A program made the position numbers and the translations under genes. 64,000 nucleotides of DNA from an uncultured Solirubrobacterales bacterium (lineage in GTDB: Bacteria; Actinomycetota; Thermoleophilia; Solirubrobacterales; Solirubrobacteraceae), in the NCBI GenBank assembly GCA_963806475.1, contig CAWDYK010000013.1, positions 211,905-275,904 of the forward strand. Direction: 5' to 3'. The notes under the pieces are model-generated. The model ran no database searches. It had not been told where the DNA came from and saw only the letters and a list, made by a program, of their open reading frames with translations. Shown in pieces: positions 31,822 through 57,697 of the stretch (the first letter of the stretch is position 1; every line of letters begins with the position of its first letter).

Positions 31822-32023
31822 CAGACTGCGTTCCTGAAACTCTTGCGCTGCATCGACGATGATCCTGCGTTCGCGGGTCTTCCCGCGCTCGACGGCGAAG
31901 GAGCCGCCTGCTCGAGGTGTCATCGTCGCACACGAACTGTCGCGTGCCGCTGACCGACCGGGCACGTTGGAGCGTTTCTCGCGCGAGGGGGCCGGGCGTC
32001 AGCGGTCGCGCCGCGGTGAGACA

Positions 32024-32404: not shown

Positions 32405-32774
32405 TTAGGTTTCAGCCTCGCTCCCGGCCGCCATGCGAGCGGCTGACCAGGTCTCGAACAGCGTGCTCACGACGCTCGGCGACGGCCAGTGGCCCCGCGC
32501 CAGCCGCCGCTGAGACTCCCCTCCTCTGGCTCGCGCGTGTGTGCGCGACCAGTCGTACGACGACGGCAACCGGCCGTACCGCTCGACGCCAGTCGAGCAT
32601 CGCCTCGACCACGAGCTCCCGGGTCCAGCGGCGCTCGATTGCGCCGGGATGGCAGGACTTGCAGTACGCGTACGCGTCGCCCTTGCCGTTGCGCGGCTGG
32701 GTGTAGGCGCCGCAGCCGCGGCACACGCCGACGTACCGGGCCTTGACCGCGCGCGCCTTCTCTCCGGTCGGGTC
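32405..32774 (-). pseudogene. 3' half of HTH/Zn-finger gene A (split by the serine-recombinase element)
   Basis: DPTGEKARAVKARYVGVCRGCG..YCKSCHPG..WTRELVVEAM..PSSYDW; no start; homologous to 53461-53824. Confidence 0.85.
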
Positions 32775-32790
32775 TGATGCATCTAAAGGG
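32755..32790. other. Hybrid att site, left junction of the LSR element
   Basis: Gene half CCGGTC-GGG joined to the element arm TCTGATGCATCTAAAG. Confidence 0.75.
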
Positions 32791-32824
32791 CGTAGCGTGC
32801 CCGAGGTACCGAGAGGAGCCCGCT

Positions 32825-34224
32825 GTGACCAGCAAGCCCCGTGCCGTCGCCGTCGTCCGTGTCAGCGCTCAGGGCGACCGCGCAGAGGAGCACTTCCACT
32901 CTCCCGAAGTGCAGCTCGACAGCGCCAAGCGGTGGGCGCGCAAGCGCCGCGAGCGGTTCGTCGCGCACTTCCCCGAGATCGACGTCTCGGGCAAGCGCCC
33001 GCTCGTCAAGCGCCCCGGCCTGCTCAGGGCCGTCGAGATGATCGAGGCCCGTCAGGCTGACCACATCGTCGTCGCCTATTTCGACCGGCTGGTGCGGTCG
33101 CTGAAGGTGCAGCTGGAGGTGATCGAGCGGGTCGAGAGGGCTGGTGGCGAGATCTTCGCGCTGGACCACGGCAAGCTGACGAACGGGACCGCCGCCACTC
33201 GCCTGTCGACGAACATGATGGGTGCGGTGTTCCAGTACTTCGCCGAGGTGACGGGCGAGAAGGTGACGGCCGCGCAGGCGCGCGCGGTGGCGCGCGGGGT
33301 GCTGCCGAACTCGCGGATCGTGCCCGGATACATGCGCGGCGAGGACGGTGTGCTGGTGGTCGTGCCTGAGCTGGCGCCAGCCGTGCGCGAGGTATTCCAG
33401 CGCCGCGACCGGGGCGCCACGATCGTCGAGCTGCAGGCGTTCCTGCTCGAGCGCGGGATCGAGCGGTCGGTCGCAGGTGTGGCATCGATGTTGCGCTCGC
33501 GGATGTACCTCGGCGAGATCCATTTCGGCGAGCTGCACAACCCGAGCGCTCATGAGCCGATCATCACCGATCGCGGCCTATTCGAGCGCGTGCAGCGGCG
33601 GACGGTCATGCGCGGGCGCCAAGCCAAGTCCGAGCGGCTGTTGGCGCGTCTCGGTGTGTTGCGCTGCGGGACGTGCGGGTCGCGGATGGTGATCAACAGC
33701 TACAGCGGCAACTACCGCTGCGGTGACACGAGCGCGAACCCGTGCCGGGGACGAGCGGCGGTCAAGGCCGACCGCGTCGAGGAGATCGTGCTGGACGCGC
33801 TCCGGGCGTACTCGGCTGTGGCCGACGCGCACGGACGGGCGTCGCGCAAGCAGCAGATCCGCGAGGCGGACGAGGCGATCGAACGCGCCAACGCAGATCT
33901 CGATGACACGATCCGCCAACTCGGCGAGCTTGGATTGTTGGGCCGGCCCGCTAGCCAGCAGACCCTGGAGAAGCTGACCAAGACGCTCGACGACGCCCAC
34001 AGCGCCCGGGCCCGACTCGGCGATGAGGGCGAGAGCGATGTCATCGGCCCTGACGAGATCGACAAGCTGCGCGACCCCGCAAAGCGCTTAGCGGCTTGGC
34101 GACGGCTGATCACACACCGATCGAGTCGGTTACGGTCGCGCCGGCGATGACGGCGGATGGGCGACCCAGTCGCCTCTGGGACCCTCGCCGAATCGACATC
34201 AGGTTCCGGGGCCAGCATCCATAA
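32825..34224 (+). CDS. Large serine recombinase (frameshift near 34112)
   Basis: VRVS catalytic Ser, DVSGK..RPGL, FDRLVRS, recombinase domain, Zn ribbon LRCGTCG..YRC. Confidence 0.93.
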
Positions 34225-36108: not shown

Positions 36109-36449
36109 GCGGACAGCTCCTTCAGCGCGTCGGGGATCACGTAGTAATAGGCCCACAGCCCCTCGCGCTCGGAGCCGACGATTCCGGCCTGGCGCAGCAC
36201 CTTGAGGTGATGGGACACGGTGGGCTGGGAGAGGTCGAACAGCGGCACCAGCTCGCACACGCACACCTTGCCGGCGTGCTTGCGCAGCACGTCGACCAGC
36301 TGCAGGCGGACGGGGTCGCCGAGCGCCTTGGCGATCGCGGCCATCCGGGCAGCGTGGTCGCGCTCGACGTCGGGATAGACGACCGGCTCGCAGCAGCGCT
36401 CGCCGGCGGGGCGCTTGGTCTTGGGGGTCAGTTCCAGATCGACAGCCAT
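36096..36449 (-). CDS. arsR: ArsR/SmtB regulator #1
   Basis: [30 protein letters not shown]. Confidence 0.92.
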
Positions 36450-36500
36450 CTATGTACTGTATATCGATTGAACTCATGATTGTCAATAGATAGACTGGCG
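36450..36500. promoter_or_regulatory. Divergent promoter with putative ArsR operator
   Basis: AT-rich, imperfect inverted repeat ATCGATTGA..TCAATAGAT between the divergent ars genes. Confidence 0.55.
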
Positions 36501-36523
36501 GCGCGTTGCTCGGGAGGTCAGTC

Positions 36524-37202
36524 ATGCATGTTCAGATGAGCCCGTTGATGCGTCAATGCCTGGACGCGACGACGCGGGAGCTCTCGGAGGAGTTCCGCGG
36601 CGTGTTCTCGCGCGAGACGGTCGCCCGTTGCGTCGTGGAGTCCTTTGAGCGGATCGGCGATCGGCCGACGGTCGGCCCGAATTTCCTGCCGGTGATCATC
36701 GAGCGGTTCGCCCGCGAGCGGCTGTGGGCGGTCGCGCAGGCGGACGGGCGGGTCGAGAAGCCGCTGCGGGAGGTGCTGTTCGTGTGCGAGCGCAACGCCG
36801 GGCGAAGCCAGATGGCCGCCGCGTTCGCGCACCCTCTCTCAAACGGCTGGGTCGCCGTTCGCTCGGCTGGCTCGCACCCGGATGAGCAGATCGATCCGGT
36901 CGTCGTGCAGGCGATGAGGCGAGCTCGGCGTCGATGTGGCGTGCGAGTTCCCGAAGCCGCTGACGGACGAGGTCGTGCGCGCCGCCGATGTCGTCGTCAC
37001 CTTAGGGTGCGGGGACGCGTGCGCGGTGTATCCGGGCAAGCGATATCAGGACTGGCCGGTCGCCGATCCCGCCGGCGAGCCGATCGAGGTCGTGCGGCGG
37101 ATTCGCTACGAGCTCTATCACCGCGTGTGGGAGCTGCTCGAGACGCTCGTTCCCGCCGGGAATCTGATCGACATCCACCGACCCATAGGGGGCCAGCGTT
37201 GA
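36524..37202 (+). CDS. arsC: LMW-PTP-type arsenate reductase with N-terminal helical domain (frameshift)
   Basis: [29 protein letters not shown]. Confidence 0.85.
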
Positions 37203-37925
37203 ATCGCGTCGCGGTCATCACCGACATCCACGGCAACCTGCCGGCGCTCGAGGCGAGTCTGCAGGCGATCGGCGCGATCGGGGTCGACGCCGTGTATTGC
37301 GGCGGGGATCTCGTTGGCTACGGCCCGCATCCCGAACGAGGTGTGCCGGCTGATCGAGGAGCGCGGGATCCCGACGATCTACGGCAACTACGACTACGCG
37401 ATCGGCCGCGAGCTCGACGACTGCGGCTGCGCGTACGTCACCCCGCATGACCGCGAGCTCGGCCAGCAGTCGGTGGCGCTGGACGCTCGCGCACACCGAC
37501 CAGCGCTCGAAGGACTTCATGCGCGCGCTGCCGTTCGATCTGCGTTTCGAGCTGGGCGGTCACAAGGTCCACCTGGTGCACGGCTCGCCGCGGAAGGTCA
37601 ACGAGTACCTGTTCGAGGACAAGCCCGCGAGTCTGTATGAGCGGCTCGCGGCCGCCGAGACCGACGACGTGCTCGTGTTCGGGCACACCCACAAGCCGTG
37701 GATCCACGAGTACGGCGGGCGTGCTGTTCGTCAACTGCGGGTCGGTCGGCAAGCCCAAGGACGGGGATCCGCGCGGCGCGTTCGCGATCCTCGAGCTCGA
37801 CGAGACAGGTCGAGGTGCGGGCGTCGATCGAGCGCGTTCCCTACGACGCGGAGGCGGTCGCGCGCGAGGTCGCCGCTGCGGGCCTGCCCGAGGAGTACGC
37901 GACGAAGCTGGTCGCAGCCGCGTAA
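37199..37925 (+). CDS. Metallophosphoesterase (frameshifted)
   Basis: [34 protein letters not shown]. Confidence 0.88.
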
Positions 37926-37952
37926 CACGAGAGAGACGAGAGGGGAGAGAAG

Positions 37953-38561
37953 ATGAAGTACGTGCTGTTCGTGTGCACTCACAACGCGGGGCGCTCGCAG
38001 ATGGCCCAGGCATTGTTCGAGCGATCGTGCCCGAGCGACTGCCGGGCAGAGTCCGCGGGGTCTGATCCGGCTCGGCAGGTCTGGCCCGAGGTGGTCGAGG
38101 TGATGCGCGAGGTCGGGGTCGATCTCTCGCCGAACAAGCCCAAGCGGCTGACGGTCGAGATGCAGCTGCACGCCGACTGGGCGGTGACGATGGGCTGCGG
38201 CGACGTTTGCCCATACGTCCCGACGCGTGTCGATGATTGGGACATCCCTGACCCGGCCGGTGCGTTCGATCGACGAGGTCGGGAGATCCGCGACATGATC
38301 GACGAGCGCGTAAAGGACCTGGTCGATCACAAGATCCACGAGATCCGCCTCGACGCGACCTCGCATCGCTGGCGGCTCGCGAAGCTGCTGCCGGCGCTGA
38401 TCGAGGAGTTCGGCGACACGCGCTCGGCGGAGGTGATCCGCGGTTGCGCCGACCGGATCCTCGACGACTACGACGACGTTCCGGTCCGCAGCCACATCCT
38501 CACGCTCGCGCACAAGCGCACCCGTGAGTGCCTGCGCCACGAGCACTGCGAGATGCTCTAA
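37953..38561 (+). CDS. arsC: LMW-PTP-type arsenate reductase with C-terminal helical domain
   Basis: [29 protein letters not shown]. Confidence 0.85.
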   Translation: MKYVLFVCTHNAGRSQMAQALFERSCPSDCRAESAGSDPARQVWPEVVEVMREVGVDLSPNKPKRLTVEMQLHADWAVTMGCGDVCPYVPTRVDDWDIPDPAGAFDRRGREIRDMIDERVKDLVDHKIHEIRLDATSHRWRLAKLLPALIEEFGDTRSAEVIRGCADRILDDYDDVPVRSHILTLAHKRTRECLRHEHCEML

Positions 38562-38564
38562 CTG

Positions 38565-39323
38565 ATGAACCGGGCTATGGGACGGCGGCTGTTTGCGGAG
38601 TTCCTGGGTTCGGCGTTTCTCGCGGCGCTCGTGATCGGGTCGGGGATCGCCGCGCAGAACCTCTCCGCCGGCGATGTCGGCCTGCAGCTGTTTGAGAACT
38701 CCGCGGCGACCGCAGCGGGGCTGTTCGCGATCATCCTGATGTTCGGCCCGGTCTCGGGCGGGCATTTCAATCCGGTCGTCTCGCTCGTCGACGCCAGCTT
38801 CGGCGGGCCTGCGCTGGCGCGATGCGCTCGCGTACGTGCCTGCCCAGGTCGGCGGCTGCATCCTCGGCGCGATCACCGCCAATGCGATGTTCGCGCTGGC
38901 GGCGATCAGCATCTCGACCAAGCACCGTGCCACTCCCGCGCACCTGTTCGCCGAGGTGATCGCGACGCTCGGGCTGTTGCTGGTGATCTTCTCGCTGGCG
39001 CGGACGAGGCGCGGGAACATGGCGCCGGCGGCGGTCGGCGCGTACATCGGCGCGGCCTACTGGTTCACGAGCTCGACGAGCTTCGCGAATCCCGCGATCA
39101 GCGTCGGGCGGATGTTCTCTGACACGTTCGCCGGCATCGCCCCGGCCTCGGTCCCGGGATTCGTGGTCGCGCAGCTGGTCGGCGGCGCGGTCGCGATCGC
39201 CGTGCTCCGGGTGCTCTATCCCGACGTCACACCGGACGAGGCGGCGGAGGTCGTGCTGCCCCACGGATCGAAGCTCGCGCGCCGACGGCGCGGGCGGCTG
39301 TCCCGGCCAGCGCGGAGGCGTAG
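38565..39323 (+). CDS. MIP/aquaporin family channel (frameshifted; 3' end uncertain)
   Basis: AEFLGS, SGGHFNPVV, SSTSFANPA. Confidence 0.88.
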
Positions 39324-39334
39324 GCCGCGTGGTG

Positions 39335-40760
39335 ATGCGCCTGGTCGCGATCGGCGGGAGCGACGCAGGCATCAGCGCCGCGCTCGCGCGCGCGGGAGCT
39401 CGACCCGAGCGCGGAGGTGACGGTCGTGCTCGCCGACGCCTACCCCAACTTCTCGATCTGCGGCATCCCCTACTACGTCTCGGGCGAAGTCGGGCACTGG
39501 CGAAACCTCGCGCACCGAACCGTCGCGGACCTCGAGGCGACCGGCATGACGCTGAGGCTCGACACGCGCGCGCAGCGCATCGACCCGAGCGCCCACCAGC
39601 GTGCTGGTCGCCGACAACAGACGGTCGTTGAGGAATGGATCGACTACGACGCGCTGATCGTGGGAACCGGGCGCGGTGCCGGTCCGCCCGCCGATCGCGG
39701 GCTCGATCGCCTCGGCGCCGGCGACGGCGTGCATCTGCTGCACTCGATGGGCGACACCTTCGCGCTGATGCGCAGCCTCGAGCAGCGCCACGTCGAGCGT
39801 GCGGTAATCGTCGGCGCCGGCTACATCGGACTCGAGATGGCCGAAGCGCTGATCATGCGCGGGCTGTCGGTCACGCAGCTCGAGCAGCTGCCCGAGGTGC
39901 TGCCGACCGTCGACCCCGAGCTCGGCGCGCTCGTCCGCGCAGAGCTCGAACGCCACGACGTCAGCGTCTCATGCAACACGCGCGTCGAGGAGATCGCCAC
40001 GGCGCCGGACGGCTCGCGCGCCCGGCTCGAGGTTCGCGCACGCGGCCCCGAGGGCGCGCCGCTCCGCTTCCCGGCAGACGTCGTGCTCGTCGTCGTCGGC
40101 GTGCGACCCGGACACGCAGCTCGCCGCCGTCTGCCGGAGCGGAGCTCGGCGTCAAGGGGGCGATCGTGGTCGACCGGCAGATGCGCACCAACCTGCCCGA
40201 CGTGTTCGCGGCGGGCGACTGTGTCATCACCCACCACCGGCTGCTCGGCGCCGGCTACCTGCCGCTCGGAACGACCGCGCACAAGCAAGGCCGGATCGCC
40301 GGCGAGAACGCGCTCGGCGGCCGGCCGCGAGTTCGCCGGCAGCCTCGGCACACAGGTCGTCAAGGTGTTCGACCTCGTCGCCGCGCGCACCGGCCTTCGC
40401 GACCACGAAGCCACCACCGCCGGGTTCGACCCCGTCACGGTCGGCTCGACGGCTGACGATCACAAGGCCTACTACCCGGGCAGCCACCCGATCACGATGC
40501 GCTACACCGGCGACCGGCGCACCGGCCGGCTGCTCGGCGTCCAGCTCGTCGGCCACCGCAACGCGGAGATCGCCAAGCGCATCGACATCCCCGCGACCGC
40601 CATCTTCAACGAGCTCACGGTCGAGCCAGCTCTCGGAGCTCGATCTCTCCTACACCCCGCCGCTCGGCTCGCCGTGGGACGCCATCCAGATCGGCGCCCA
40701 GGAGTGGAGCCGGCATGCGCTTCGAAGCAGTCACGGTCCGGGCTTCCACGCGCTCCTTGA
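39335..40760 (+). CDS. CoA-disulfide reductase-like FAD oxidoreductase (frameshifted)
   Basis: IGGSDAG, SICGIPY, GAGYIGLE, AAGDC, LSYTPP. Confidence 0.85.
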
Positions 40761-41071
40761 GCTCTGAGTCGCGTTGCTCGCGTGACCCGGACCGCACGCG
40801 AGCTTCCGCCCGCCGATGCCCGGTCCCGGGATGAATTTGGGGTTTGCGGAGAAACCCGGATTGGGGCCGCGCGGGGCTACGGTTGACGGACGGCCGTGGA
40901 TAGCCGATCCTTCGATTAGTTTCGATTCAATCGACAAATCGCAATATAAGCATCGGCCTCGGCAGGTGCACCTGTTGACGTGAGGTGACTTCCAGCCGCG
41001 TCGGCGCGGTTGCGATCAGCTTTACCGGGTCTTGTTTGACCTCTTCCGATGAGTAGGAGGGACGCTGTCCC

Positions 41072-41314
41072 ATGACCATTCAAGTTCTCGGTCCCGGCTG
41101 CAGGCGCTGTCATGCGCTTCATCAGACCACCCTGGCTGCGGTTGAGCAGCTCGGCTGGGACACGCCGGTTGAGAAGTGCCACGACTATCTCGAGATGGCG
41201 CGCCTGGGGGTGATGAGCACGCCGGCGCTGGCGCTCGATGGGCGGGTGGTGATGTCGGGGAGCGTGCCGTCGGTCGATCAGGTTCGCGAGCTGCTCGCGG
41301 CGGAAGTCCGATGA
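41072..41314 (+). CDS. Small thioredoxin-family redox-active disulfide protein
   Basis: IQVLGPGCRRC, GVMSTPAL. Confidence 0.88.
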   Translation: MTIQVLGPGCRRCHALHQTTLAAVEQLGWDTPVEKCHDYLEMARLGVMSTPALALDGRVVMSGSVPSVDQVRELLAAEVR

Positions 41315-41695
41315 GTGCGATGGACACGATCCTCGTCCCGAAGCGCAAGCGCGCCGCCGGGGCGCCTCCGGTTGTGAGTCCGGCGCGCCCGTCGGTCGAT
41401 GTCGAGCGTGCGACGCGGCTGGCCGCTTACGCGAAGGCGCTGGCGGATCCGATCCGCGTGCAGCTGGTCGACGTGCTCGCCGAGCACCCGGGCGAGTTGT
41501 GCGCGTGTGAGCTGCTGCCGTTGTTCGATGTCGCGCAGTCGACGCTCTCGCATCACCTCAAGACGCTCGCTGACGCCGGCATCCTCGAGACCAGGCGCCA
41601 GGGGCTGTTCGCGTATTACCTCGTCCGCCCGCAAGCGCTCGTCGACCTCTCGAGTTGGCTGGAGGGCGCGGCGTCCGCGGAGGCTCAGCTCGTGA
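41311..41695 (+). CDS. ArsR/SmtB regulator #2 (reads in frame into the next gene as assembled)
   Basis: KALADPIRV, ELCACEL, QSTLSHHLK. Confidence 0.85.
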
Positions 41696-42780
41696 GCACG
41701 ACCACCACCGATGGCACCTACGCACGGCTCGCTGAGCTGCCGGTGGTGATCGACGGCTACGCGCTGGAGGTCCTCTCTCGCCGGGTGTCGAGCGGGTTTC
41801 GCCGGTTCACGACGGTGTTCTGCGCTGGCCGGCGCTGGACACGACGGCGTCGGCGAGGATGTGACCTACGAGGCGGCCGAGCATCGTCAGGCTCACCGTG
41901 CAGGGTCCGGTGCTGCCGCTCGCGGGCGCCTGGACGATCGAGAGCTTCTCCCGGCACCTCGATCAGCTCGACACATTCCCAGGCGGTCGGCCGGCGCAGG
42001 AGGTCTCGCGGACGTATCGTCGCTGGGCGCTTGAGAGCGCGGCGCTGGATCTGGCGCTGCGCCAGGCCGGCCTGCCGCTGCACGCGGTGCTCGGACGCAT
42101 ACCGCGCGCCGGTGCGGTTCGTCGTCTCGCTGAACCTCGGACCGGCGCCGAGCTGCGCGTCGCTGTTGAGCCGGCGGGCGGCCTGCTCGCAGGTGCGCTT
42201 CAAGCTCGATGCGACCTCCGAGTGGGGGGATGAGCTGCTGCGAGTGCCTGGCCGCGAGCGGGTGTGTGGAGGCGATCGACTTCAAGGGCGTCTATCAGGG
42301 CGCGCTGTCGGCGGTCCGCACCGACCCGGAGCTGTATCGCCGCGTCGTGCGGGCGTTGCCTGAGGTGTGGCTGGAGGATCCCGACCTCTCGCACCCCGTT
42401 GCGCGGATGGCGCTGGATGGCCATCGCGAGCGGGTGACGTGGGATGCGCCGATCCACAGCGCCGCGGACATCGCCGCGCAGCCGTGGGCGCCGCGGACGG
42501 TGAACATCAAGCCGTCGCGGTTCGGGACGCTGCGGGCGCTGTTTGACACCTATGACTATTGCGCCGCGCACGGGATCGGCGCGTATGGCGGCGGCCAGTA
42601 CGAGCTCGGGCCCGGGCGCGGGCAGGCGCAGTACCTCGCGGCGCTGTTTCACCCCGACGCGCCCAACGATCTCGCCCCCGCAGGGTTCGACGATCCGGCC
42701 CCGCCACCCGACGTGCCGTGCCCGCCGATGCAGCTCACGACCGCGCCGATCGGCTTCGCCGCGCAACCGGAGCCGCGTAA
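41692..42780 (+). CDS. Enolase-superfamily-like hypothetical protein (frameshifted)
   Basis: GVGEDVTY, RWALESAALDLAL, FKLD, WLEDP, WDAP, NIKPSRFG. Confidence 0.6.
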
Positions 42781-42856
42781 TAGCACGGTCTTGACCAGCC
42801 GCGCGAGCCGCCGCGGCCGCGTTTCCGTCTTCAGCTCACAACCCGAAGGACTGACC

Positions 42857-43240
42857 ATGAAAATCGAAGTGTTTGACCCCCCGATGTGCTGCTCGACCGG
42901 CGTGTGCGGCCCGAGCGTGCCGCCGGCGCTGAGCCGGTTCGCCGGCGACCTGGAGTGGCTCGCCGCCAAGGGCGTCGAGGTGACCCGCCACAACCTCGCC
43001 CACGAGCCGCAAGCGTTCATTGCCAGCGAGCAGGCACGCCAGGCACTGACCGAGCAGGGCAACGAGGCGCTGCCGCTGATCCTCGTCGACGGTGAGCCGG
43101 TCTCGAGCGGGCGCTACCCGTACCGCTCAGAGCTGGCCGGATGGACCGGCCTGCCGATCCCCAAGACCCGGGTGCGACTGACGATGGCGCCGCCGGTGTC
43201 CGGCTTTGGAGGCTGCTGCGGCGGCGCAGGGGGCTGCTGA
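42857..43240 (+). CDS. arsD: Arsenic metallochaperone ArsD
   Basis: FDPPMCCSTGVCG, LPLILVDG, C-terminal CC..C. Confidence 0.95.
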   Translation: MKIEVFDPPMCCSTGVCGPSVPPALSRFAGDLEWLAAKGVEVTRHNLAHEPQAFIASEQARQALTEQGNEALPLILVDGEPVSSGRYPYRSELAGWTGLPIPKTRVRLTMAPPVSGFGGCCGGAGGC

Positions 43241-45001
43241 TGAGCGACCTATCGACACTGCTTGAGGACCCCACCCGCGTTCTGTTCTTCACCGGCAAGG
43301 GCGGGATGGGCAAGACCACGCTCGCGTGCTCGACGGCGGTTGCGCTGGTCGGCGCCGGGCGGCGGGTGCTGCTCGTCTCCACCGATCCGGCTTCGAATCT
43401 CGACGAGGTGCTCGGCACGGAGCTCGCCGAGCAGCCCCGTCCGGTGGCGGGGATCGTCGGGCTTGACGCGGCGAACATCGATCCCGAGGCGGCGGCGCGC
43501 GACTATCGCGAGCGGATGGTCGGCCCGTACCGCGGGCTGCTCCCGGACAGCGCCCTGTCCAGCATGGAGGAAACGCTGTCCGGCGCGTGCACGGTGGAGA
43601 TCGCCGCGTTTGACGCGTTCGTGGGGCTGCTCGGCGATCCTGCGGGCACGGCGGGCTATGACCATGTGATCTTCGACACCGCGCCGACCGGGCATACGTT
43701 GCGGCTGCTGTCGCTGCCCGCGGCATGGACGGGGTTTATCGATACCAACACGACCGGGGTGTCGTGCCTGGGTCCGCTGGCCGGGTTGCAGGAGCAGCGC
43801 GAGCTGTACGCCGCGAGCGTGCGCGCGCTCGGGGACCCGGAGATGACGACGCTGGTGCTGGTCAGCCGCCCCGAGCAGACGGCGCTGGCGGAGGCCGAGC
43901 GCACGCGCGGCGAGCTCGCCGGCGCGGGGATGCGCCGCCAGGTGCTCGCGCTCAACGGCGTCTTTGAGGCCAACGGCAGCACCGATCGCACCGCCCGAGC
44001 GCTGAGCGAGCGCCACCGTGAGGCGCTGGCGGCGATCCCGGCCGGGCTCGCAAGCCTCCCCCGGGTGAAGGTCCCGCTGCTCGACTTCGCGCCGATCGGC
44101 GTCGACGCGCTCGCACGTGTGCTTCACCGCAACGGCTTTGTCCGCCCGCACGAGCAGCCTCCCGACGCCGAGCTGCCCGGTGAGCCACTCTCGCAGCTGA
44201 TCGATGAGCTCGAGTCCGGCGGCCGTGGGGTGATCATGACGATGGGCAAGGGTGGCGTCGGTAAGACGACGCTGGCCGCTGCGATCGCCTCAGAGCTCGC
44301 GCGTCGCGGGCATCACGTCCACTTGTCCACGACCGATCCCGCCGCGCACGTCCACGACGCCGTCGGCGAGGGGATCGCGGGGCTGTCGGTGTCGCGGATC
44401 GATCCTGCCGAGCAGACCCGCGTCTACTCCGAGCAGGTAATGGCGGCCGCCGGCGCCGATCTCGACGAGCAGGGCCGCGCGCTCTTGGAGGAAGACCTGC
44501 GCTCGCCGTGCACCGAGGAGATCGCCGTGTTCCGCGCGTTCGCCGACATCGTCGCCGACGGGCGAAGACGGCTTCGTGGTACTCGACACGGCCCCCACCG
44601 GCCACAGCCTGTTGCTGCTCGACGCGACCCAGTCCTACCATCGCGACATCGCCCGCGGCCTCTCGGAGGTGCCCGACGCGGTCGCGCACTTGCTGCCGCG
44701 CCTCCGGGATCCCGACTACACGCGGGTGCTGATCGTGACGCTTCCGGAGGCAACCCCGGTCCACGAGGCAGCGCGGCTCAGCGAGGACCTCGAACGCGCC
44801 GGAATCTCCCCATACGCGTGGATCGTCAACCAGAGCCTCGCCGCCGCCGGCGCGACGCACCCCACGCTCGCCGCCCGCGCGCGTGACGAGCACCCCTACC
44901 TCGCCGAGGCCGCGGGGCTCGCCGAGCGACTGGCGCTCGTCGCGTGGCAGCCGTACACGCCCGCCGGCGATCAGGGACTACGAGCGCTGGTCGCCGCATG
45001 A
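43240..45001 (+). CDS. arsA: Arsenical pump ATPase ArsA #1 (frameshift near 44560)
   Basis: Two Walker A motifs, STDPASNL, SGACTVE, DTAPTGH twice, SCLGP, SPCTEE. Confidence 0.93.
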
Positions 45002-45261
45002 GAGAGCTCACGCTCCTTGCCGTGCCGGATTGCCCGCTGAGCGATCACGCCCGCCAGGTGCTCGACACGCTCGCCGCGGAGAAGCTGCTGGTCTGGCGCG
45101 AGCTCACCACCGGAGCGCCCGGGACCGAGCACCTGGTCGATGGCGCGCCGGAGCTGCTGCCGGCGCTGTTGAACGAGTCCGATCAGATGATCGCGCACGG
45201 ACGGCTCTCCGAGCGCGCCCTGCGCCGGACCCTCGCGCCTGACCAACCGGGGGCGGCCTAG
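44998..45261 (+). CDS. Glutaredoxin-like small protein (CPLS)
   Basis: LLAVPDCPLSDHA..GRLSERALRR; ATG overlaps the arsA stop. Confidence 0.6.
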   Translation: MRELTLLAVPDCPLSDHARQVLDTLAAEKLLVWRELTTGAPGTEHLVDGAPELLPALLNESDQMIAHGRLSERALRRTLAPDQPGAA

Positions 45262-45286
45262 CCGTCTATCCAACACCGTCATTGCT

Positions 45287-45628
45287 ATGGCCTCTCCGCT
45301 CCCCAACATTCCCGCAAGCCCCGTCGCCGCGTGCTGTGCTCCCTCCGCCGGCATCGATCCGACGCTCGATGCCGAGCGGATCGCAGCGGTGGCGAAGGCG
45401 CTCGGCGAGCCATTGCGCGTGCAGATCGTTGACGTGCTGCGCCGCAGCGAGCAGGACATCTGCCAGTGCGCGCTGATCGCCGTGTTCGGCGTGCACCAGT
45501 CGCGTTTCGCCTACCACATGAAGAAGCTGATCGACGCGGGCCTCGTACGCGTCGAGCGTCGGCACAAGTGGGCCTACTACGCCATCCGCACCGACGCCGC
45601 ACAGGAGCTCAGCGCATGGCTGAGCTGA
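45287..45628 (+). CDS. ArsR/SmtB regulator #3
   Basis: ACCAP, KALGEPLRV, ICQC, YHMKKL. Confidence 0.85.
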   Translation: MASPLPNIPASPVAACCAPSAGIDPTLDAERIAAVAKALGEPLRVQIVDVLRRSEQDICQCALIAVFGVHQSRFAYHMKKLIDAGLVRVERRHKWAYYAIRTDAAQELSAWLS

Positions 45629-45975
45629 CCACCGACCGGCGCCAGCCTCGGTCCGCTCCGAGCAGCACGCGCGCGCGCAACCGGCACAGCGATCCCGGGC
45701 GTCCGGCGCCCGTCCCACCCGAGATGACCGAGACCGGTCCGGACGGTTCAGACGATGCTCCACGCGAGCAGGCGCATCGGCGTGCGTTCGCGCCGGCCGC
45801 TCTGAGTGAAGGTCTCAGGCTGCGCTGTGAACAGCGCGCCGAGTCGTGGCGATTACATCGATGACCATCGATACGTAGTTTCCGCGTTGGAAGTTTCGGG
45901 GCTTGCCCCGATGTTCATCGGGCAGCCCGGCGCGACAATACCCCTTGGGGGTATCGCTACGAAGGAAGGTTGACC

Positions 45976-47111
45976 ATGTGGGCGCAAATCGAACACAGAT
46001 CGGATGCCATCCGGTGTTTCCATCCGGCGTGGTTCGCGTCGGTGATGGGTACGGGCATCATCGCTGTCGCAACGCATCACGCCGATAAGGTTCTTCCCGG
46101 ACTTGAGGGATTTGCCGTCGTCCTGTGGGTGCTGAGCGCGGTGTTTTTCGTGGCTCTGATTGTGCCGTGGACGATCCGCTGGATCCGCTATCCGAGGGAG
46201 GCGTGGGCCGACACCGCGCATCCCACACGCGGCCCGTTCTACTCAACGATGCCGATCGCGCTGTTGGTCTTGGCCGTGGACTTCGCCGCGATCGGATCGA
46301 CGCACATGAACGCCGATACTGCGTTGAGCATTGCCAAGGGACTGTGGATCGTCGGGACACTGCTGGCGTTCTTCTTCGGCGTACTCGTGCCATCGCGGTG
46401 GCTGACCGGTTCAGCCTCGCTCGAGCACATCAACGGCGGGATGGTTCATCCCTCCGGTTGCCGACATCGTCGTTCCCGCCGCTGCCGCGCCGCTGATCTC
46501 CTCGTGGGGATCGCACGGCATGTCCGAGTTCGTCTGCGTTGTCGCATTCGCGTTCTTCGGGATCGGGATCATGCTGTTCATCATGCTCGGCGCGCTGCTG
46601 ATCGGCCGACTGATCCAGAACGGGCTTCCCGAAGCGCACCTCGCCCCAACGCTGTGGATCGGCCTCGGGCCGATCGGCGTCGGGAGCCTCGCGCTCGCGC
46701 GGCTGGCGACCACGGCAACGCCGCTGTTCGGCGCATACGCACCAGAGGCGCGGACGCTGCTGCTGCCTCGCTGCCGTCGCCATCTGGGGATTTGGGCTGT
46801 GGTGGCTCTCGACCGCGATCGTGCTCACGCTCCGCTACCTACGCGCACCATTCCCGTTCGCGATGAGCTGGTGGGCGTTCACATTCCCGCTCGGCGCCTA
46901 CACCGTCGCCACATTCGTTCTCGGTGACGCCTACAACGCCGACTACCTCACGGGATTCGGCTTCGCGCTGTGGGTGCTGCTGATCGGCTTCTGGGTCGTC
47001 GTTCTCGTTCGGACAGTCGCCGGCGCATTCACCGGAGCGCTGCTGAAGCCTCCACCCAGCTGCCCGCCCCGTGACCGCGCGCGAACGCCAGGCCATGCAA
47101 TCGCCGCCTGA
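45976..47111 (+). CDS. TDT/SLAC1 (tellurite-dicarboxylate) family transporter (frameshifted)
   Basis: PAWFASVMGTG, LWIGLGP, SWWAFTFPLGA. Confidence 0.88.
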
Positions 47112-47373
47112 CCCGAAGGCTCTCGTCTCAACAGAGATGAGATCCAAACGATGCACGCCACCGATTCTTTCGGGCTTGCTCGTGTTAGCGGTTAGGGAAA
47201 GCCCGGATCACGTTGGCGTCGGCGCCTCGGTCGACGGACGCCCGCGGCCGACAGCAGCTCGGTCGGTCATCGGTTCACGTGACGATTGGTTCTGTCTCTC
47301 TGGTGGCCCGTCGTGTGGCGTTGGCATTGGCTGGTGCGCCTGCGTGCGGACGGCCGGTAATGGTGGAGCGGAT

Positions 47374-47799
47374 GTGAGCGCCATGAACACGGTCTCAACC
47401 TCGAAGCCTAAGAGCGTGCCCGGTGCACCGCCACTCCTCGGCCCAGCGCCCCAGCCGGCTGACCTTGCGGGCACGGTCCGCCTCGCACGGTACGCGAAGG
47501 CGCTGGGCGAACCGATCCGCATCCGGCTCGTCGAGGTGCTTGCGCAGCATCCCGGCGAGCCGTGCGCGGGCGAGTTGCTGCCGCTGTTCGGTGTCGCTAA
47601 GTCGACCCTGTCTCATCACCTCAAGACGCTCGCCGACGCGGGCATCATCGAGACCAGGCATCAGGGCACGCTCGCCTACTGCCTCGTCCATCCACAAGCA
47701 TTGGCCGACCTGGCCGGCTGGCTCGGTCAGACCGCTCAGGACGGAACGCGGCGCGCCGGCGCCGAGCACCCGCCGCAGGCTGGCCGCGACGTAGCGTGA
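47374..47799 (+). CDS. ArsR/SmtB regulator #4 (paralog of #2)
   Basis: KALGEPIRI, KSTLSHHLKTLADAGI; near-collinear with #2. Confidence 0.85.
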   Translation: MSAMNTVSTSKPKSVPGAPPLLGPAPQPADLAGTVRLARYAKALGEPIRIRLVEVLAQHPGEPCAGELLPLFGVAKSTLSHHLKTLADAGIIETRHQGTLAYCLVHPQALADLAGWLGQTAQDGTRRAGAEHPPQAGRDVA

Positions 47800-47844
47800 T
47801 GGCCCGGAGCTGATCACGGACGAGCGGGGAGGGCGGTCAATCTG

Positions 47845-49624
47845 ATGGCGTCGCGCTCGCTGAACCGTCTGGACTGGGTGTCGTGGAGCACGCCGTTTCT
47901 GTTCTTCACGGGCAAGGGCGGGGTCGGGAAGACGACGGTCGCGAGCGCGGCGGCCATTGCGCTGGGTGATGCGGGCCGGCGTGTGCTGGTCGTCAGCACC
48001 GACCCGGCGTCGAACCTCGCGGACGTCTTCGGGGTCGCGGTCGGTTCGACGGTCACGACGGTGCCCGGAGCGCCTGGCGTGTCGGTGATGAACCTGGACC
48101 CTGACGCGGCAGCGGCTGCCTATCGCGAGCGTGTGATCGGCCCCTACCGTGGCGTGGTCTCCGAACGGGAGATCGGCGAGATCGAGGAGCAGCTGGCCGG
48201 CGAGTGCACGGTCGAGGTGGCCGCGTTTGATCAGTTCACGCAGCTGATCGTCCATCCGGAGCTGACCGGCCGCTATGACCACGTGATCTTCGACACCGCG
48301 CCTGACCGGTCACACGCTGCGGTTGATGGACCTGCCAAGCGCGTGGGCTGACTACATCGAGACCAGCCGGGAGGGCGCGAGCTGCCTGGGGCCCCGATCC
48401 GGGCTCGAGGCGCAACGCGAGCAGTATCAGGCCGCGGTCGCGCAGCTCGCCGACCCGCACCGCACCACGCTCGTGCTCGTCAGCCGCCCTGACCCAAGCG
48501 CGCTGCGCGAGGCCGCCCGCGCCGGCGGCGAGCTGGCCGACGAAGGCATCCGCAACCAGCGACTGGTGATCAACGGCCTGTTCGATCAGCCGCTGAGCGG
48601 CGACCGCGTCGCCGAGGCGCTCGCCGCGCGCCAGCGCCAAGCGCTCGAGTCAATACCCGCGTCCCTTCACGAGATCCCGATGGCAGGCGTTCCGCTGGTC
48701 GCCCTCGATCTCACCGGCGTCGCAGCGCTCCGCGCCCTGGCATCGGGCCGCACCACTCCTGCCCGGCCGTCAACGATCGCGCCCAACGATCAGCCTGCGT
48801 TGCCGGACCTGAACGCGCTCGTCGACGAGCTCGAGCGCGGCGGTCCGGGAGCAGTCCTGGTGATGGGCAAGGGCGGCGTCGGCAAGACCACGATCGCCGC
48901 CGCCCTCGCCGTCGCCCTCGCGCACCGCGGCCACGACGTGCACCTCTCGACGACCGATCCGGCAGGACGGATCAGCGACGTCCTCGCCGATGCCGCGCCC
49001 GACCATCTGACCGTCAGTCGAATCGACCCCGCCGCCGAGCTCGCGAACTACACCGCCGAGCGGTTGCGGGCGGCCGAGCGTTTTGACCCGGAACGGCGAG
49101 CGCTGCTGGTGGAGGATCTGCGCTCGCCGTGCACCGAGGAGCTCGCCGTGTTCCGCGCGTTCTCCGGCCTGCTCTCCGAAGCCCGCCGGCGATACGTGAT
49201 CATCGACACCGCCCCCAGCGGGCACACCCTGCGGCTGCTCGACCTGACCGGCTCCTATCACCGCCAGATCGTGCGCGACGCGGCCAGGCCAGCGGGGCGC
49301 TTCACGACCCCGCTGATGCGACTCCAAGACCCTGCATACACGCGGGTCCTGGTCGTCACGCTCGCAGAGCTGACTCCCGTCTCGGAGGCCGCCGCGCTGC
49401 AGGACGATCTCCGACGCGCCGGCATCGAACCATTCGGCTGGGTGATCAACGCAAGCCTCACCGGGAGCGGCACCCACGACCCGCTGCTGCTCGCCCGCGC
49501 CAACCTCGAACGTCCCCACCTGCACCGCGTCCGCGATCAACTCGCCGACCGAGCGTGGATCGTCCCATGGCAGATCCACACCCTGATCGGCGAACAACGA
49601 CTCGCCGAGCTCGCGAAGGCATAG
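47845..49624 (+). CDS. arsA: Arsenical pump ATPase ArsA #2 (frameshift near 48302)
   Basis: GKGGVGKT twice, AGECTVE, SCLGP, SPCTEE, DTAPSGH. Confidence 0.92.
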
Positions 49625-50497
49625 ACAGCTCTTGCTGCTGCCAGGCCTTGAGCTTGCGCGAGCCTTGGCCACGGCTCACAGTCCTATCCCGATCGACGAT
49701 CAGCTGCTCGATACCGGGTAGTGCGCGGACCCGGGTGCGCCTGCCCTCTTGCGCGTTTGAGCGCGGCGCCATGGGGTGCGACTGAGACCGATCATGCCTG
49801 CGCGAACACGAAGGCAGGGGCACGACCGTCCCGCGAGCAACAGACCCGGGTACTCGCCAGAAGCGCGCACGCCGCTCGCCGCCGAAGGTGGTCCCGCTGA
49901 TCTTCGGCGCGCTAGCTGAAGTTTGGGGAGATGCAAGCACCAATGCAGTCACGACGGCTTCGGCACTGACACCGCCGCGATAGGCGTGAAGCAGCGACGC
50001 GCGTGACATTGGCAAGCTGATCGGCCAGCCCTGCATTCGCGGTCGCACGGGCATCCTCAAGCCGGCGCCGACAGTTTCGGAATGCGCGGCCTGCAGGGGA
50101 CTGCGGTCGGCTTGGGCGTTGCGGTCGGCTCGCGGTCCGCGAGCGCCTCGCTGACCGCGCAGAGCGTGTCTGGGTCGCGGGGCGCGCGCGGACCTGCTCT
50201 CGGAAATTCGCGGGTCTCTCGGGTCGGTCGGCGGAGTCCGCGACCGCGCGCCCTGCTGTGGTGAAACACCCTACGCCGGCTTGACCGGACGCGGGCCGTG
50301 GAGGGTGGACGACAGCGCCGGTTGGGCTGCTGGTGATGATCGGGGGATGCGCCGCATGGGCCGGACTCACCCGCTGGCGCTGGCGCGGAGTGCCGACTTC
50401 CCGGGGCGGGCTGTGATCGGGTCGAAGCCGAGCGCGGACGGTCTTGAGCCGGGTGCCCGGCGGCTGGGTGCGGCTGCGAGTAGTAGCCTCGGCGGGG

Positions 50498-53460: not shown

Positions 53461-56400
53461 TCAGCTGCCGCCGAAGGCGTCGGCGCGGGCCGCCGCCCAG
53501 GCTCCGTACAGCTCGGTGACGGTCGACGGTGCGGGCCATTCTCCGGCCTGTAGTCGCTTGAGCGCTTCGCCGCCGCGCCGGCATGCGTGGGTGCGCGACC
53601 AGTCATAGGAGGAGGGCGCAGCGCCGTAGCGCGCTCGCCATGCGCGCATCGCTTCGCGAACCCGCTCCCGTGTCCATTGCGGCGCAATCGCGCCGGGATG
53701 ACAGCGTTTGCAATACGCGTAAGCGTCGCCCTTGCCGTTCCGTGGCGCGGTGGGCGCCCCGCAGCCACGGCACATGCCCCGGTAGCGCGCCTTCACCGCG
53801 CGTGCCTTATCGCCGGTCGGATCGGCTGAGGTAGGGCCTCGGCGAGGTGCCTTGTGGTCCTTTTCCGAGACCCCCCTCCCGAACCCGGCGTGACCATTTC
53901 TGATCACCGGGCTCTCCAGTGACTACTCCGTGTTTGTTCACGGAGGACACTCAATACCGTTTCGGCGTTCTGCATTACGCATACCTCCCGGTTCTCGGAT
54001 GTCCAGTCACCTGTGCTCCTTCGCCCTGTGGACGGCTTTCCCGTCCTCCTTGGTGCGGCGTGAATCGCACGACTACTATGGGCACTCCGTCACCCTGGGA
54101 CTCGCGCCCCGAGGGTTGATCCCGCGTTCGTCCCTGTCGTACGTCCGAGCGTGACTTAGGCGTCCGACTCATCTCCTTAATTGCCCTCACTGGGCAACGC
54201 TCCACGCTCCAAAGGTTGCAGCGACCTTTCTACGATGCCGCCGCAGAGCATGGCGCCGGTCTCGGGTGCCTTTCCGACGGACGGGCCTTTGCGTCTTCTG
54301 GAGATTCGGCTTCAGGCAATCCAGCTTTCGCCATATCACGCGGGTCCCACGACACCCCGGCCCTGACACCTGGGCCGACCGCCGTTTTGCTGGCATGCGC
54401 TTGTTCCGTTCACCTCTCGGATCCGGGTAAGCCATCAGACCCACGAACCTTCCTTCGAGTTCGTCCCGGCTGCGCCGGGGATACAACAGGGCGCCTCGCG
54501 GCGCATTAGAGATAGGGTGCGGCTCCCGTGGAGGGACGTCATTCTGCCTGGGGTAGACCGGGGATGATCCCGCCGGCGTAGCGGGCTTCGTGGACTCGTT
54601 TGCGTTCTTGTGTGAGGTGGAAGCGCCAGTAACTGTCGAAGTCGTTGTTGCTCTTCAGGGCGCGTAGCTTCAGCACGGCCTCGGCGCCTTCGAGTCCCCA
54701 GCGCGCCCCGGTGATGTCCATCCGGTCCTTCACCAAATGGCGACAGGCACCCTCGATCACGCCCGTGGCGATCGGCCACCCGTTCGCGAGCGCGGTCGGG
54801 TAGTCGAGGTAGGGGCGCTTGTTGAGCAGGTAGTCGGCGGCGTTGTCGGCGTTCTTGCGCTTGTCCGCGCCGAGCTGGCGGCTGGTGGCCTTGCGGCGGA
54901 TCGCGGCGGCGACCGTGCTGGCCTGACCGTCGAGAACCGCGCGCATCTTCTCGGCCACCCAGCGCTCGGCGGCCGGGTCGCCTTCTTCGAAGAAGCACCA
55001 CGCTGCGTCCCACAGGTACTCCATTACGTGAACACAATCGACAAGGATTGTGACCTTCACACCGCGCTTCTTGGCCTCCTTCTTGACCCTGTCGATCTGG
55101 TGGTTGTTGCCATCGACGAGCACGACCCAGCTGCGCTGATGATCGCCATCGCGGCGCTCGGCTTGGTCGAACATCCGCGCGATCACCCGGGCTGCGTCGT
55201 CGGTCACGCTCGCGCACACCCACTTGTTCTTCGCCTCGGGTCCGGCGCGGGCGTCCTCGCGCTCCTGATCGGTGGCGGGCAGGATGTCGGCCGGCGCTCT
55301 GACCTTGGGCGCGACCTCGTAGACCGCGGCGACCTCCGCCATCCGCTTGCGATTGCGCTTCTCACCCCGCGACAGGCGCGTTTTGAGCTTGTGCTCGGAG
55401 CTGGCGGCCTGCCTCTTGGTCTGCTCCCGCAGCGCCTCAGGGCGCATCACTACCCCCTTGGCGTCGCACGAGAGCACCAGCACATCGTCCTGATCGACGG
55501 CGTCGTGCTCGCGGTGCTCATAGAACGCCTCGAAGTCGACCGCGGCCCGGAGCGCCATCTCTTCGACCTGGCGTTTGCCGATCTGCACGCCGATGCTGCG
55601 GCGGATCGCGTCGGTGGCATCCTCGAACGATCCCCTCGGGGCCTCCAGCGCGACCAGCCGCCTGACGCCGTGCGAGTGCTTCTCCTCGGGCAGATTCAGC
55701 GTCGCATCGGCGACATACAGGTTCTCCTCCCCCCGCCGCCGGTACGCCAGCCTCCCGACCCTGACGTCGCCAAACACGCTCGCAAGCGGCCGGCTGTGAT
55801 CGCGCTCGACCGCCCGGCGCTCCACGCCGGCCGCGTCCACCACCTGATCCACACGCGGCTCGCGGAGCGCGCGCAGCTCGAGCTTGTCTTCCAACAGCGA
55901 TCGCAACAGCTCGCGGCCCTCGCTCTGCAGTAGATCCTCCAGCTCGGAGTGCTCAAGCCCGTCGGTCTCCACGCTCTCAAGCGAGCCCACGACCGCGTCA
56001 AACCGCCCCCGCGAGCGAGCAAAGGCATCCCCGCCGGACGGCGCGCCGCTCACGCGAGCGCGATCGCGCTCAAGATCCGTTGCATCATCGCCACCAGGCG
56101 CTGCGCCGGGCAGGAGTTCATCCGCCGGCGCGTAACCTTCGCCAGAACGGGTGCCAAGGTCGACGGTCATTGCGGCCACCTTTCGTGGTCGACGTTGATA
56201 GCTCAACGCCGACCTTCGGCACCCTCCTTATCGACTCCTGCCCGCCCCGCTCGGCGCCGCTAACCCCCTCAAACCAGGGGAAAGCCACGCCCAGCCGCCC
56301 AACCCACCGGGATCAACACCAGCCACGGCTCCCAGCAGCCCCAGCCGCCCAACCCAAAACCCCCCAATTTCCAGGGTGGTTCACCATCCTGGCACGACCC

Positions 56401-56554
56401 TCCACGAGAGCCGCACCCTTTAGAGATACGCCTTGACGGTCGCTTCTGCGCGTCCCAGCCGACGAGCGATCTCCGCGATCGACAGACCCTCCCCGTCGCG
56501 GTAGTAGCGGGCGAGTTGCGCCGCGCGGCGTCGTTCCACGACACGGTCGAGCAT
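53461..56554 (-). CDS. HTH/Zn-finger gene B (exon 1 56554-56421; exon 2 53824-53461), interrupted by an IS and a group II intron
   Basis: Joined exons read MLDRVVERRR..GLSIAEIARRLGRAEATVKAYL-Y-DPTGDKARAVKARYRGMCRGCG..YCKRC.. in frame. Confidence 0.88.
53825..54506 (-). mobile_element. ORF-less group II intron (IIA-like), copy 1
   Basis: DV GAGAGCCCGGUGAUCAGAAAUGGUCACGCCGGGUUCGG, DVI with bulged A, J2/3 GGA, residual ORF start MQNAETVLSVLRE, EBS loop. Confidence 0.9.
54514..56419 (-). mobile_element. ISKra4-family insertion sequence
   Basis: Terminal inverted repeats AGGGTGCGGCTC(C/T)C(C)GTGGAGGG; 8-bp TSD TTAGAGAT at 54506-54513 and 56420-56427. Confidence 0.9.
54539..56170 (-). CDS. ISKra4-family transposase
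   Basis: DAKGVVMR, LVDG, DCVHVMEYLW, GWPIATGVIEGACRHLVKDRMDITGARW; intact. Confidence 0.9.
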   Translation of the reverse strand: MTVDLGTRSGEGYAPADELLPGAAPGGDDATDLERDRARVSGAPSGGDAFARSRGRFDAVVGSLESVETDGLEHSELEDLLQSEGRELLRSLLEDKLELRALREPRVDQVVDAAGVERRAVERDHSRPLASVFGDVRVGRLAYRRRGEENLYVADATLNLPEEKHSHGVRRLVALEAPRGSFEDATDAIRRSIGVQIGKRQVEEMALRAAVDFEAFYEHREHDAVDQDDVLVLSCDAKGVVMRPEALREQTKRQAASSEHKLKTRLSRGEKRNRKRMAEVAAVYEVAPKVRAPADILPATDQEREDARAGPEAKNKWVCASVTDDAARVIARMFDQAERRDGDHQRSWVVLVDGNNHQIDRVKKEAKKRGVKVTILVDCVHVMEYLWDAAWCFFEEGDPAAERWVAEKMRAVLDGQASTVAAAIRRKATSRQLGADKRKNADNAADYLLNKRPYLDYPTALANGWPIATGVIEGACRHLVKDRMDITGARWGLEGAEAVLKLRALKSNNDFDSYWRFHLTQERKRVHEARYAGGIIPGLPQAE

Positions 56555-56619
56555 CAGACCCCAAGCCCACCGGAGGTGCTGGACGGCCCGCTCAAGTGCA
56601 GTCAGCGCGCGGGGCCATC

Positions 56620-56650
56620 TGAAGGTCTTTTGTTATCATCAGAGGGGCCG
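56620..56650. other. Hybrid att site, right junction of the LSR element (split by intron copy 2)
   Basis: Element arm CTTTTGTTATCATCAGA-GGGG; the gene A half continues after 57332. Confidence 0.75.
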
Positions 56651-57332
56651 GCTGAGGTAGGGCCTCGGCGAGGTGCCTTGTGGTCCTTTTCCGAGACCCC
56701 CCTCCCGAACCCGGCGTGACCATTTCTGATCACCGGGCTCTCCAGTGACTACTCCGTGTTTGTTCACGGAAGACACTCAATACCGTTTCGGCGTTCTGCA
56801 TTACGCATACCTCCCGGTTCTCGGATGTCCAGTCACCTGTGCTCCTTCGCCCTGTGGACGGCTTTCCCGTCCTCCTTGGTGCGGCGTGAATCGCACGACT
56901 ACTATGGGCACTCCGTCACCCTGGGACTCGCGCCCCGAGGGTTGATCCCGCGTTCGTCCCTGTCGTACGTCCGAGCGTGACTTAGGCGTCCGACTCATCT
57001 CCTTAATTGCCCTCACTGGGCAACGCTCCACGCTCCAAAGGTTGCAGCGACCTTTCTACGATGCCGCCGCAGAGCATGGCGCCGGTCTCGGGTGCCTTTC
57101 CGACGGACGGGCCTTTGCGTCTTCTGGAGATTCGGCTTCAGGCAATCCAGCTTTCGCCATATCACGCGGGTCCCACGACACCCCGGCCCTGACACCTGGG
57201 CCGACCGCCGTTTTGCTGGCATGCGCTTGTTCCGTTCACCTCTCGGATCCGGGTAAGCCATCAGACCCACGAACCTTCCTTCGAGTTCGTCCCGGCTGCG
57301 CCGGGGATACAACAGGGCGCCTCGCGGCGCAT
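56651..57332 (-). mobile_element. ORF-less group II intron, copy 2
   Basis: 682 nt; only one substitution versus copy 1 noticed by eye (GGAGGAC vs GGAAGAC). Confidence 0.9.
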
Positions 57333-57490
57333 TAGAAGTACGCCTTGATCGTCGCCGGGGAGCGACCGAGCCGGTCAGCGATCTGTCGGATCGAGAGGCC
57401 CTCGAACTCGCGGTAGTGCTGCGCCAGGGCGACCGCCCGGCGCCGCTCAAGAACCCGATCGGGAACTGCGGCTAGCGCCTTGCTGGTCAC
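57333..57490 (-). pseudogene. 5' half (HTH) of gene A
   Basis: GTG MTSKALAAVPDRVLERRRAVALAQHYREFEGLSIRQIADRLGRSPATIKAYF(Y). Confidence 0.85.
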
Positions 57491-57697
57491 GCCCGATCAC
57501 GCTACCTCGGCAGCTTGGTGTTTTCGCCAAGGTCAGCGAGCTCCCGCGTGCGCGGGGCCTGGACCTCCTACTCGCACAGAGGAGGCATTGGTCGCTTGCC
57601 GACCTCAGATCTGCGCCCTGATCTTTGCGAGCTTCTGGGTCCGTCGTGGGCGCGCGGATGCCGCTGTCGCGGATGTGTAGAACGCTGCGGCCGTGAG

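Follow-up and report, generated by a model that had tools for sequence, protein, structure and literature searches.

Twin ORF-less group II introns beside a large serine recombinase crossover in a Solirubrobacterales genome

Why should two almost identical group II introns occupy the same codon of one gene family, a few nucleotides from where a large serine recombinase (LSR) appears to cross over? The question arises from a 64,000-nt window, the whole stretch of DNA analysed here (positions 211,905 to 275,904 of contig CAWDYK010000013.1, assembly GCA_963806475.1), from an uncultured Solirubrobacterales bacterium. An earlier note, made from the sequence alone, had proposed that these introns exploit the attachment (att) sites of the recombinase. 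We consider it likely instead that an ML-class intron lacking its open reading frame (ORF) used a reverse transcriptase (RT) borrowed from elsewhere to spread by plain retrohoming, and that blocking of the recombinase site would be a side effect. The sequence itself establishes the identity and fold of the intron, the covariation of its exon-binding sites (EBS1 and EBS2) and delta base with the target, its RT-bearing parents, the layout of the recombinase element and the census of targets.

Two introns and the exon bases they read

Both introns lie on the minus strand, copy 1 (53825..54506) inside a copy of the target gene borne by the LSR element and copy 2 (56651..57332) inside attL of that element. 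As the earlier note had it, each is 682 nt long and splits a Tyr codon as TA/C; they are 2.8 kb apart and differ at a single base, intron nt 562. Domains V and VI (53825..53916 and 56651..56742, minus strand) match the Rfam group II model RF00029 in both copies at 53.9 bits, against a gathering threshold of 40, with the catalytic triad and, at 8 nt from the 3' end, a bulged A. When 8 short members of the family were aligned, they gave a six-domain fold in which 32 of 209 pairs show two-sided changes, the consensus structure behind this count having come from that same alignment. Folding of the single sequence gives z=-5.0, and the Rfam D1-D4 models match weakly (E=3). We take the window copies to be ORF-less group II introns, putatively able to splice.

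The intron ends depart from the canonical GUGYG...AY, with A at the 5' end (AUGCG) and AGC at the 3' end. Across the family the first base is G, A, C or U, the non-G starts being mostly paired with a penultimate G, and a transposase-targeting variant ends G...AC. IIA introns typically place the branch A at -7, counted from the 3' end, and finish with YAY, and the window copies do neither; their branch A is at -8, as in most variants, and at -7 in one ORF-less variant, the position varying by lineage. Since an interaction between first and penultimate intron bases is described (PMC4238363), the combination of A1 and penultimate G may be a compensated swap of the canonical ends. The intron offers a compact ribozyme of about 680 nt with a non-canonical A...GC boundary, open to direct testing. 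Reads from one run, probably DNA, contain an intron-less join, which is uninformative on splicing because a DNA run shows the same join; among the pieces listed none spans the stretch, and the reads thus do not bear on its assembly.

The loop that carries delta and EBS1 (54226..54236 in copy 1 and 57052..57062 in copy 2, minus strand) lies, with its stem, where the earlier note had placed it. The note had also read this loop as the reverse complement of a TTC TAC GAT exon junction; the position holds, but the actual junctions are CTC TA/C GAT for copy 1 and TTC TA/C GGC for copy 2. A covariation scan of 57 copies in 18 loop groups found its best 5-nt helix between intron nt 275 and exon positions -1..-5 (EBS1), and its second-best between nt 219 and exon positions -8..-12, placing EBS2 at intron nt 219-223 (54284..54288 in copy 1 and 57110..57114 in copy 2, minus strand). 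The base before EBS1 pairs with exon position +1 as G-C, C-G or U-A according to variant (read by eye), which is the delta pairing of IIA introns. Sub-variants of EBS1 follow the alleles of their targets, with 6/6 pairing at 24 of 33 distinct sites, wobble at 6 and mismatch at 3. Covariation across the family thus bears out the IIA-type delta and EBS1 pairing that had been proposed: following the definition of IIA in PMC4424553, the 3' exon is read by a delta adjoining EBS1, and pairing of EBS2 with the intron-binding site IBS2 is present. Both introns have IIA-type exon recognition and belong to the ML class.

The bases paired by the intron, from -13 to +4, are all on the bacterial side of the LSR crossover. 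Intact genes and attL are therefore targets, and attR and attP are not.

The target gene and the recombinase element

The host gene encodes 165 residues, with an N-terminal helix-turn-helix (HTH; Pfam Sigma70_r4_2/HTH_23), the only part of the protein recognised by Pfam, and a four-Cys motif; an Atlas search gave HNH_repeat as a lead, with a score below 0.9. The gene is present in 171 of 346 genus genomes, and its homologues are labelled Solirubrobacteraceae. A search found no sigma-70-like promoter upstream. The neighbours of 40 intact genes had no context in common, and neither an LSR nor an intron was present within 3 kb.

In the window, the LSR element splits this gene. The 5' half (57333..57493, minus strand; Pfam HTH_23 and Sigma70_r4_2) forms the bacterial arm of attL and supplies IBS1 and IBS2 for copy 2. 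The crossover region and P' arm of attL (56620..56650, minus strand) contain a motif that also trails the 5' half-genes of relatives, and form an inverted repeat with the attR arm. At attR, the P arm and crossover region (32770..32800, minus strand) are joined to the 3' half of the gene, located by tblastn and carrying one frameshift (32435..32774, minus strand). The two halves are 23.9 kb apart. The LSR (32825..34150, plus strand; Pfam Resolvase, Recombinase and Zn_ribbon_recom), which may carry a frameshift near its C-terminus, begins 50 nt inside the attR junction. Recombinase domains at one end, attL and attR that split one gene, and an attP that forms an inverted repeat when the inner arms are rejoined mark this as an LSR element, laid out in the order attL, spare gene, cargo, LSR, attR.

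The inverted repeat of attP is centred on CC, and the intron insertion is 4 nt from it. The earlier note had set the insertion 3-4 nt from the crossover core; its place next to the LSR crossover stands, but the data confine the crossover dinucleotide to the shared overlap GACCC, at a distance of 1-4 nt from the intron. The layout recurs in relatives, with a related LSR starting within 200 nt at 12 of 18 attR junctions and a second copy of the gene within 420 nt after attL at 30 of 38 attL junctions, the latter figure being biased by the many loci that were fetched via such second copies.

The earlier note had placed the introns in two paralogs. The hosts are of the same gene family, but that of copy 2 is a 5' half-gene joined to a P' arm, and that of copy 1 is split by an insertion sequence. 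This element-borne second copy comprises exon 1 (56421..56554, minus strand) and exon 2 (53461..53824, minus strand), the latter with the four-Cys motif and a weak HNH_repeat-like lead. No complete target gene lacking the intron was found in the assembly. The junction allele of such spare copies is distinct: T at +4 in 28/30, against C in 28/30 empty attL sites (about 3 of the attL rows look spurious) and in 32/53 other intact genes. This allele would fit an LSR that avoids the spare, and also a crossover to the left of +4, which is why we put the crossover at 1-4 nt from the intron. The position of the spare just inside attL (window 56421-56650; relatives L172-L199), with an allele rare among attL sites, is an observation in its own right, and may reflect self-avoidance by the LSR. 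Homologues of 244-280 residues (P0001-P0008) may be in-frame fusions of an attL half-gene and a spare copy.

The insertion sequence in the spare copy (54514..56419, minus strand) belongs to the ISKra4 family, with a transposase match to NF033572 of 325 bits (cut-off 205), terminal inverted repeats and an 8-bp target duplication (54506-54513 and 56420-56427). The element of 1.9 kb sits 7 nt upstream of the copy 1 splice site, thereby removing IBS2. The 8-bp duplication takes in the first base of the intron, so ISKra4 was likely the last arrival. Given the ISKra4 insertion around copy 1 and the half-gene around copy 2, splicing would yield no full-length protein from either, and the suggestion that it could restore the mRNA does not apply to the window copies. 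A different insertion sequence lies a few bases upstream of the intron 5' end in a relative (L053), as at window position 54514, and the junction may attract insertions.

We propose that the LSR element would have integrated first, splitting the resident gene; that the intron would next have homed twice, with RT supplied in trans, once into each site where the 5' half survives, namely attL and the spare copy; and that ISKra4 would have come last. The twin introns might instead stem from local duplication, gene conversion or misassembly, as their spacing, their single base difference and the frameshifts elsewhere in the assembly could suggest. However, their identity ends at both intron ends, the 5' exons being about 69% alike, the twin layout arises independently in another genome (G355, locus L061), and single-occupied versions of both kinds exist, so we give this origin hardly any credence. 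Slightly less improbable, though still very unlikely, is that the intron came first and the LSR later entered an intron-bearing gene, the intron end replacing the bacterial arm and leaving recombination unblocked. Intron-bearing attL sites are indeed common, and the intron 3' end resembles the bacterial arm out of register (AGG..TACCTC). In register with the crossover, however, the intron end and the arm agree at only 3 of 14 bases by eye, and on this count we rejected mimicry of the arm. Furthermore, identical introns precede several different P' arms within one genome, which favours later invasion by the intron.

Homing site or attachment site

We took a census of the intron across GTDB by exact-pattern scan, which gave 34 matches. 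Of the 27 with the 5' exon in view, 24 lie at this codon, where 12 occupy intact genes, 7 occupy attL and 5 have no visible 3' end, and 3 lie at unrelated look-alikes, one of these being a near-perfect IBS match in an LMWPc-like gene; among the 7 without the 5' end in view, 3 look like chance matches. The earlier note had held that copies at unrelated targets would count against its view, and most placeable copies do share the codon, but the three look-alikes do not. Occupancy in two intron-rich genomes (G355 and G334; loci fetched for 30/46 and 30/31 protein matches, plus extra regions) is 10/13 for attL, 13/23 for intact genes (Fisher p=0.29) and 0/13 for attR. Sister variants of the intron have other targets. 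Some use a YCK codon of the target gene, 117 nt further downstream (12 rows from 6 genomes, with 3' halves at attR among them), and others use an EAAWHY motif (9 rows; putatively IS110), an AIETK motif (13 rows, of which 2 are misclassified), RT ORFs and intron RNA; they mostly form separate clades.

Because intact genes are used about as often as attL, attR is never used and look-alikes are used too, the intron follows the sequence of the 5' half of the gene and not att structure. The att-seeking idea, as first proposed, is only partly supported, with no significant preference for attL, and a search by the intron for att sites as such is not supported. The target of retrohoming would be a short sequence in a multicopy HTH gene. 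Given the established behaviour of LSRs, an insert of 682 nt at 1-4 nt from the crossover would part a binding arm from the cut. Since the crossover of the LSR family appears to lie another 1-4 nt along, the site would be blocked by the intron as a side effect: at attL it would stop excision and at attB it would stop integration. It is plausible that the intron blocks LSR recombination. An insertion of this kind can be repaired in RNA and not in DNA, and is thus predicted to freeze or exclude a recombinase element, which here carries arsenic-resistance genes.

Some of the evidence pulls the other way. There is one EBS1 mismatch in each window copy, two genomes supply 24 of the 34 census matches, and the assembly, at 86% completeness, yielded no RT parent to blastn, motif search or tblastn, only RTs of other types on contigs C23, C29 and C14. 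In a gene of 500 nt, the intron and LSR sites are also no more than 4 nt apart. Where attL and a spare copy are adjacent, attL alone is occupied in 5 pairs, the spare alone in 2 and both in 2, a slight lean to attL. Moreover, the site is conserved to an unexceptional degree, ranking 82 of 442 windows across 53 intact genes (124 of 442 for the sister site). We had entertained the notion that intron and LSR both chose the most conserved motif of the gene, and this was not borne out by the rank.

The proximity to the crossover, the 10/13 occupancy of attL, the lean over the spare copy and the modest rank of the site would each fit an intron variant selected for its seat beside the crossover, where it would lock integrated LSR elements and shield the host gene, as an att-site parasite or a brake tolerated by the host. 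RmInt1 has likewise been argued to curb its host insertion sequence (PMC4238363). However, the preference for attL is not significant, attR is never used and look-alike insertions lack an att context. Spare copies are invaded despite an allele rare among attL junctions, a sister variant does well at a codon of this gene that is not an att site, and a locked element would presumably strand the intron copy aboard. We regard such selection as unlikely, though well ahead of the duplication and intron-first alternatives. Equally doubtful in our estimate is its extension to a three-way conflict at one codon, between an LSR with a recoded spare that it avoids and an intron lineage selected as an RNA-guided lock at the DNA level. 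If the lock were real, integrated elements would be frozen and empty landing sites closed, and this would be a fourth natural target niche for group II introns, beside the three bacterial specificities listed in PMC4424553 (homing sites, terminators and attC). Retrohoming with a side effect on the recombinase remains our preferred explanation.

The intron family and its relatives

Matches to the intron at E<=1e-10 occur in 58 of 346 genus genomes, with 2 candidates scored per genome. This tally includes unpublished genomes G194, G030 and G126, and that of the host gene G042, G128 and G126; one G042 locus (L189) is among the counted intact genes, and our conclusions are independent of unpublished genomes. 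Full-length family members encode an RT/maturase/HNH protein of about 594 residues. Each window copy retains 13 codons of this ORF in domain IV, adjoining the deletion junction in copy 1 (53937..53975, minus strand; MQNAETVLSVLRE; 56763..56801, minus strand, in copy 2; MQNAETVLSVFRE), as the earlier note had recognised in proposing descent from an RT-bearing parent starting MQNAETVL. A parent was indeed found in another species, 99% identical, though none in the assembly itself. This intron, the nearest parent (L200), shows an identity of 98.7% across nt 189-571 and of 99.1% across nt 571-682, and its intact ORF of 594 residues contains RVT_1, Intron_maturas2 and AI2M-like_HNH. The recent spread that had been proposed is supported. 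The deletion in domain IV with its remnants, and the related RT-bearing intron, identify the window copies as ORF-less and non-autonomous.

The best PDB match of the parent protein is LtrA (E=3e-115, against 3e-37 for the next structure), and the TIGR04416 score of another parent (L033) is 250, below the cut-off of 300. ML-class proteins pair with IIA RNA (PMC4424553). Intact RT parents stand alongside ORF-less copies in G355, and short copies also occur in G334, G330 and G371. All short copies retain the ORF start and the basal DIVb stem, yet nine distinct sequences occur at their junctions, spread over several EBS lineages, which points to repeated ORF loss at one structural point; some of the nine may be later edits of one event. 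The window pair falls outside the main clade, on an unresolved node, and monophyly of the codon-targeting lineage is not established. With few group II introns said to occur in the high-GC actinobacterial group (PMC8919778) and ORF-less introns called rare (PMC4424553), the family represents a natural retargeting series in such hosts.

We compared the introns to known systems. ORF-less families with diverged EBS have a precedent in TeI3/TeI4 of Thermosynechococcus elongatus (Mohr et al. 2010, PMC2882425), which share with the window family the DIVb deletion with ORF remnants, divergence in EBS and target, insertion into insertion sequences and other introns, and an RT acting in trans. However, the TeI family is IIB, and a single deletion is common to all 17 of its ORF-less copies, whereas the window family is ML/IIA-type with nine junctions at one stem base, and one of its lineages targets an LSR crossover region. 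Ll.LtrB, an ML-class IIA intron, lies in a mobile gene, a relaxase gene. The window introns resemble it in such a target, in a delta adjoining EBS1, in the presence of EBS2 and in the parent protein, which aligns to LtrA over 563 residues at E=3e-115; unlike Ll.LtrB, they have lost the ORF, begin with A, have a penultimate G and a bulged A at -8, and reside in a high-GC actinobacterial host.

The earlier note had drawn its analogy with class C (IIC)-attC introns, which also insert at a site-specific recombination site (PMC4424553). The analogy fails on mechanism because the window intron uses homing-site recognition through EBS1, EBS2 and delta, in contrast to the motif-based specificity of IIC introns, which do not use a homing site of 20-35 bp (PMC4424553). 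It has an ML-type parent and is not class C, and it meets only the bacterial half-site of a serine recombinase rather than the site of an integron integrase. RmInt1 in ISRm2011-2 is likewise lodged in a mobile element that it is argued to curb (PMC4238363), but it interrupts a transposase mRNA, while the predicted brake here is on a DNA recombination site, which splicing cannot repair. An LSR family at one conserved site within one gene cluster recalls the gene-targeting LSRs of Durrant et al. (PMC10083194), whose supplements may list this LSR or target; here, unlike there, the target is multicopy and the element bears a whole second copy with a different junction allele. Among the titles and abstract openings searched, we found no paper that places a group II intron at the att site of an LSR. 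The overlap of an intron homing site with an LSR crossover and the probable repeated loss of the ORF at one stem appear to be new.

Other members of the family bear insertions of their own. Twintrons nested up to three deep occur among ORF-less relatives (L075, L079, L081, L083, L088 and L096) whose EBS are aimed at the RT ORF and RNA domains of the family. In many members (L031, L035, L036, L038, L214 and L236), other elements interrupt the 3' strand of domain V at intron nt 624-625; in L035 the element is another group II intron. The genome of the window (G000) also contains two group II introns from a different family, 87% alike, roughly 790 nt long and apparently ORF-less (C30:23334-24120 and C27:172978-173760). 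A further group II intron, of a different class, carries an RT and has a second RT after it on the other strand (C23:1-2600).

The cargo of the LSR element (window 35000-49700) includes arsenic-resistance genes, with two ArsA-like ATPases, ArsD, ArsR-type regulators, a MIP channel and a SLAC1-family transporter; the many frameshifts in this region suggest probable assembly errors. A tRNA-Val followed by a tyrosine-integrase-like gene (window 28741-31965) lies 0.5 kb from the 3' half of the split gene, and the LSR target may itself sit inside a tRNA-anchored island. Elsewhere in the genome there are two further LSR paralogs (95% and 83%) and additional 3' half-genes of the target family (C25:3679-5373, C12:115343-116413 and C3:10085-10134).

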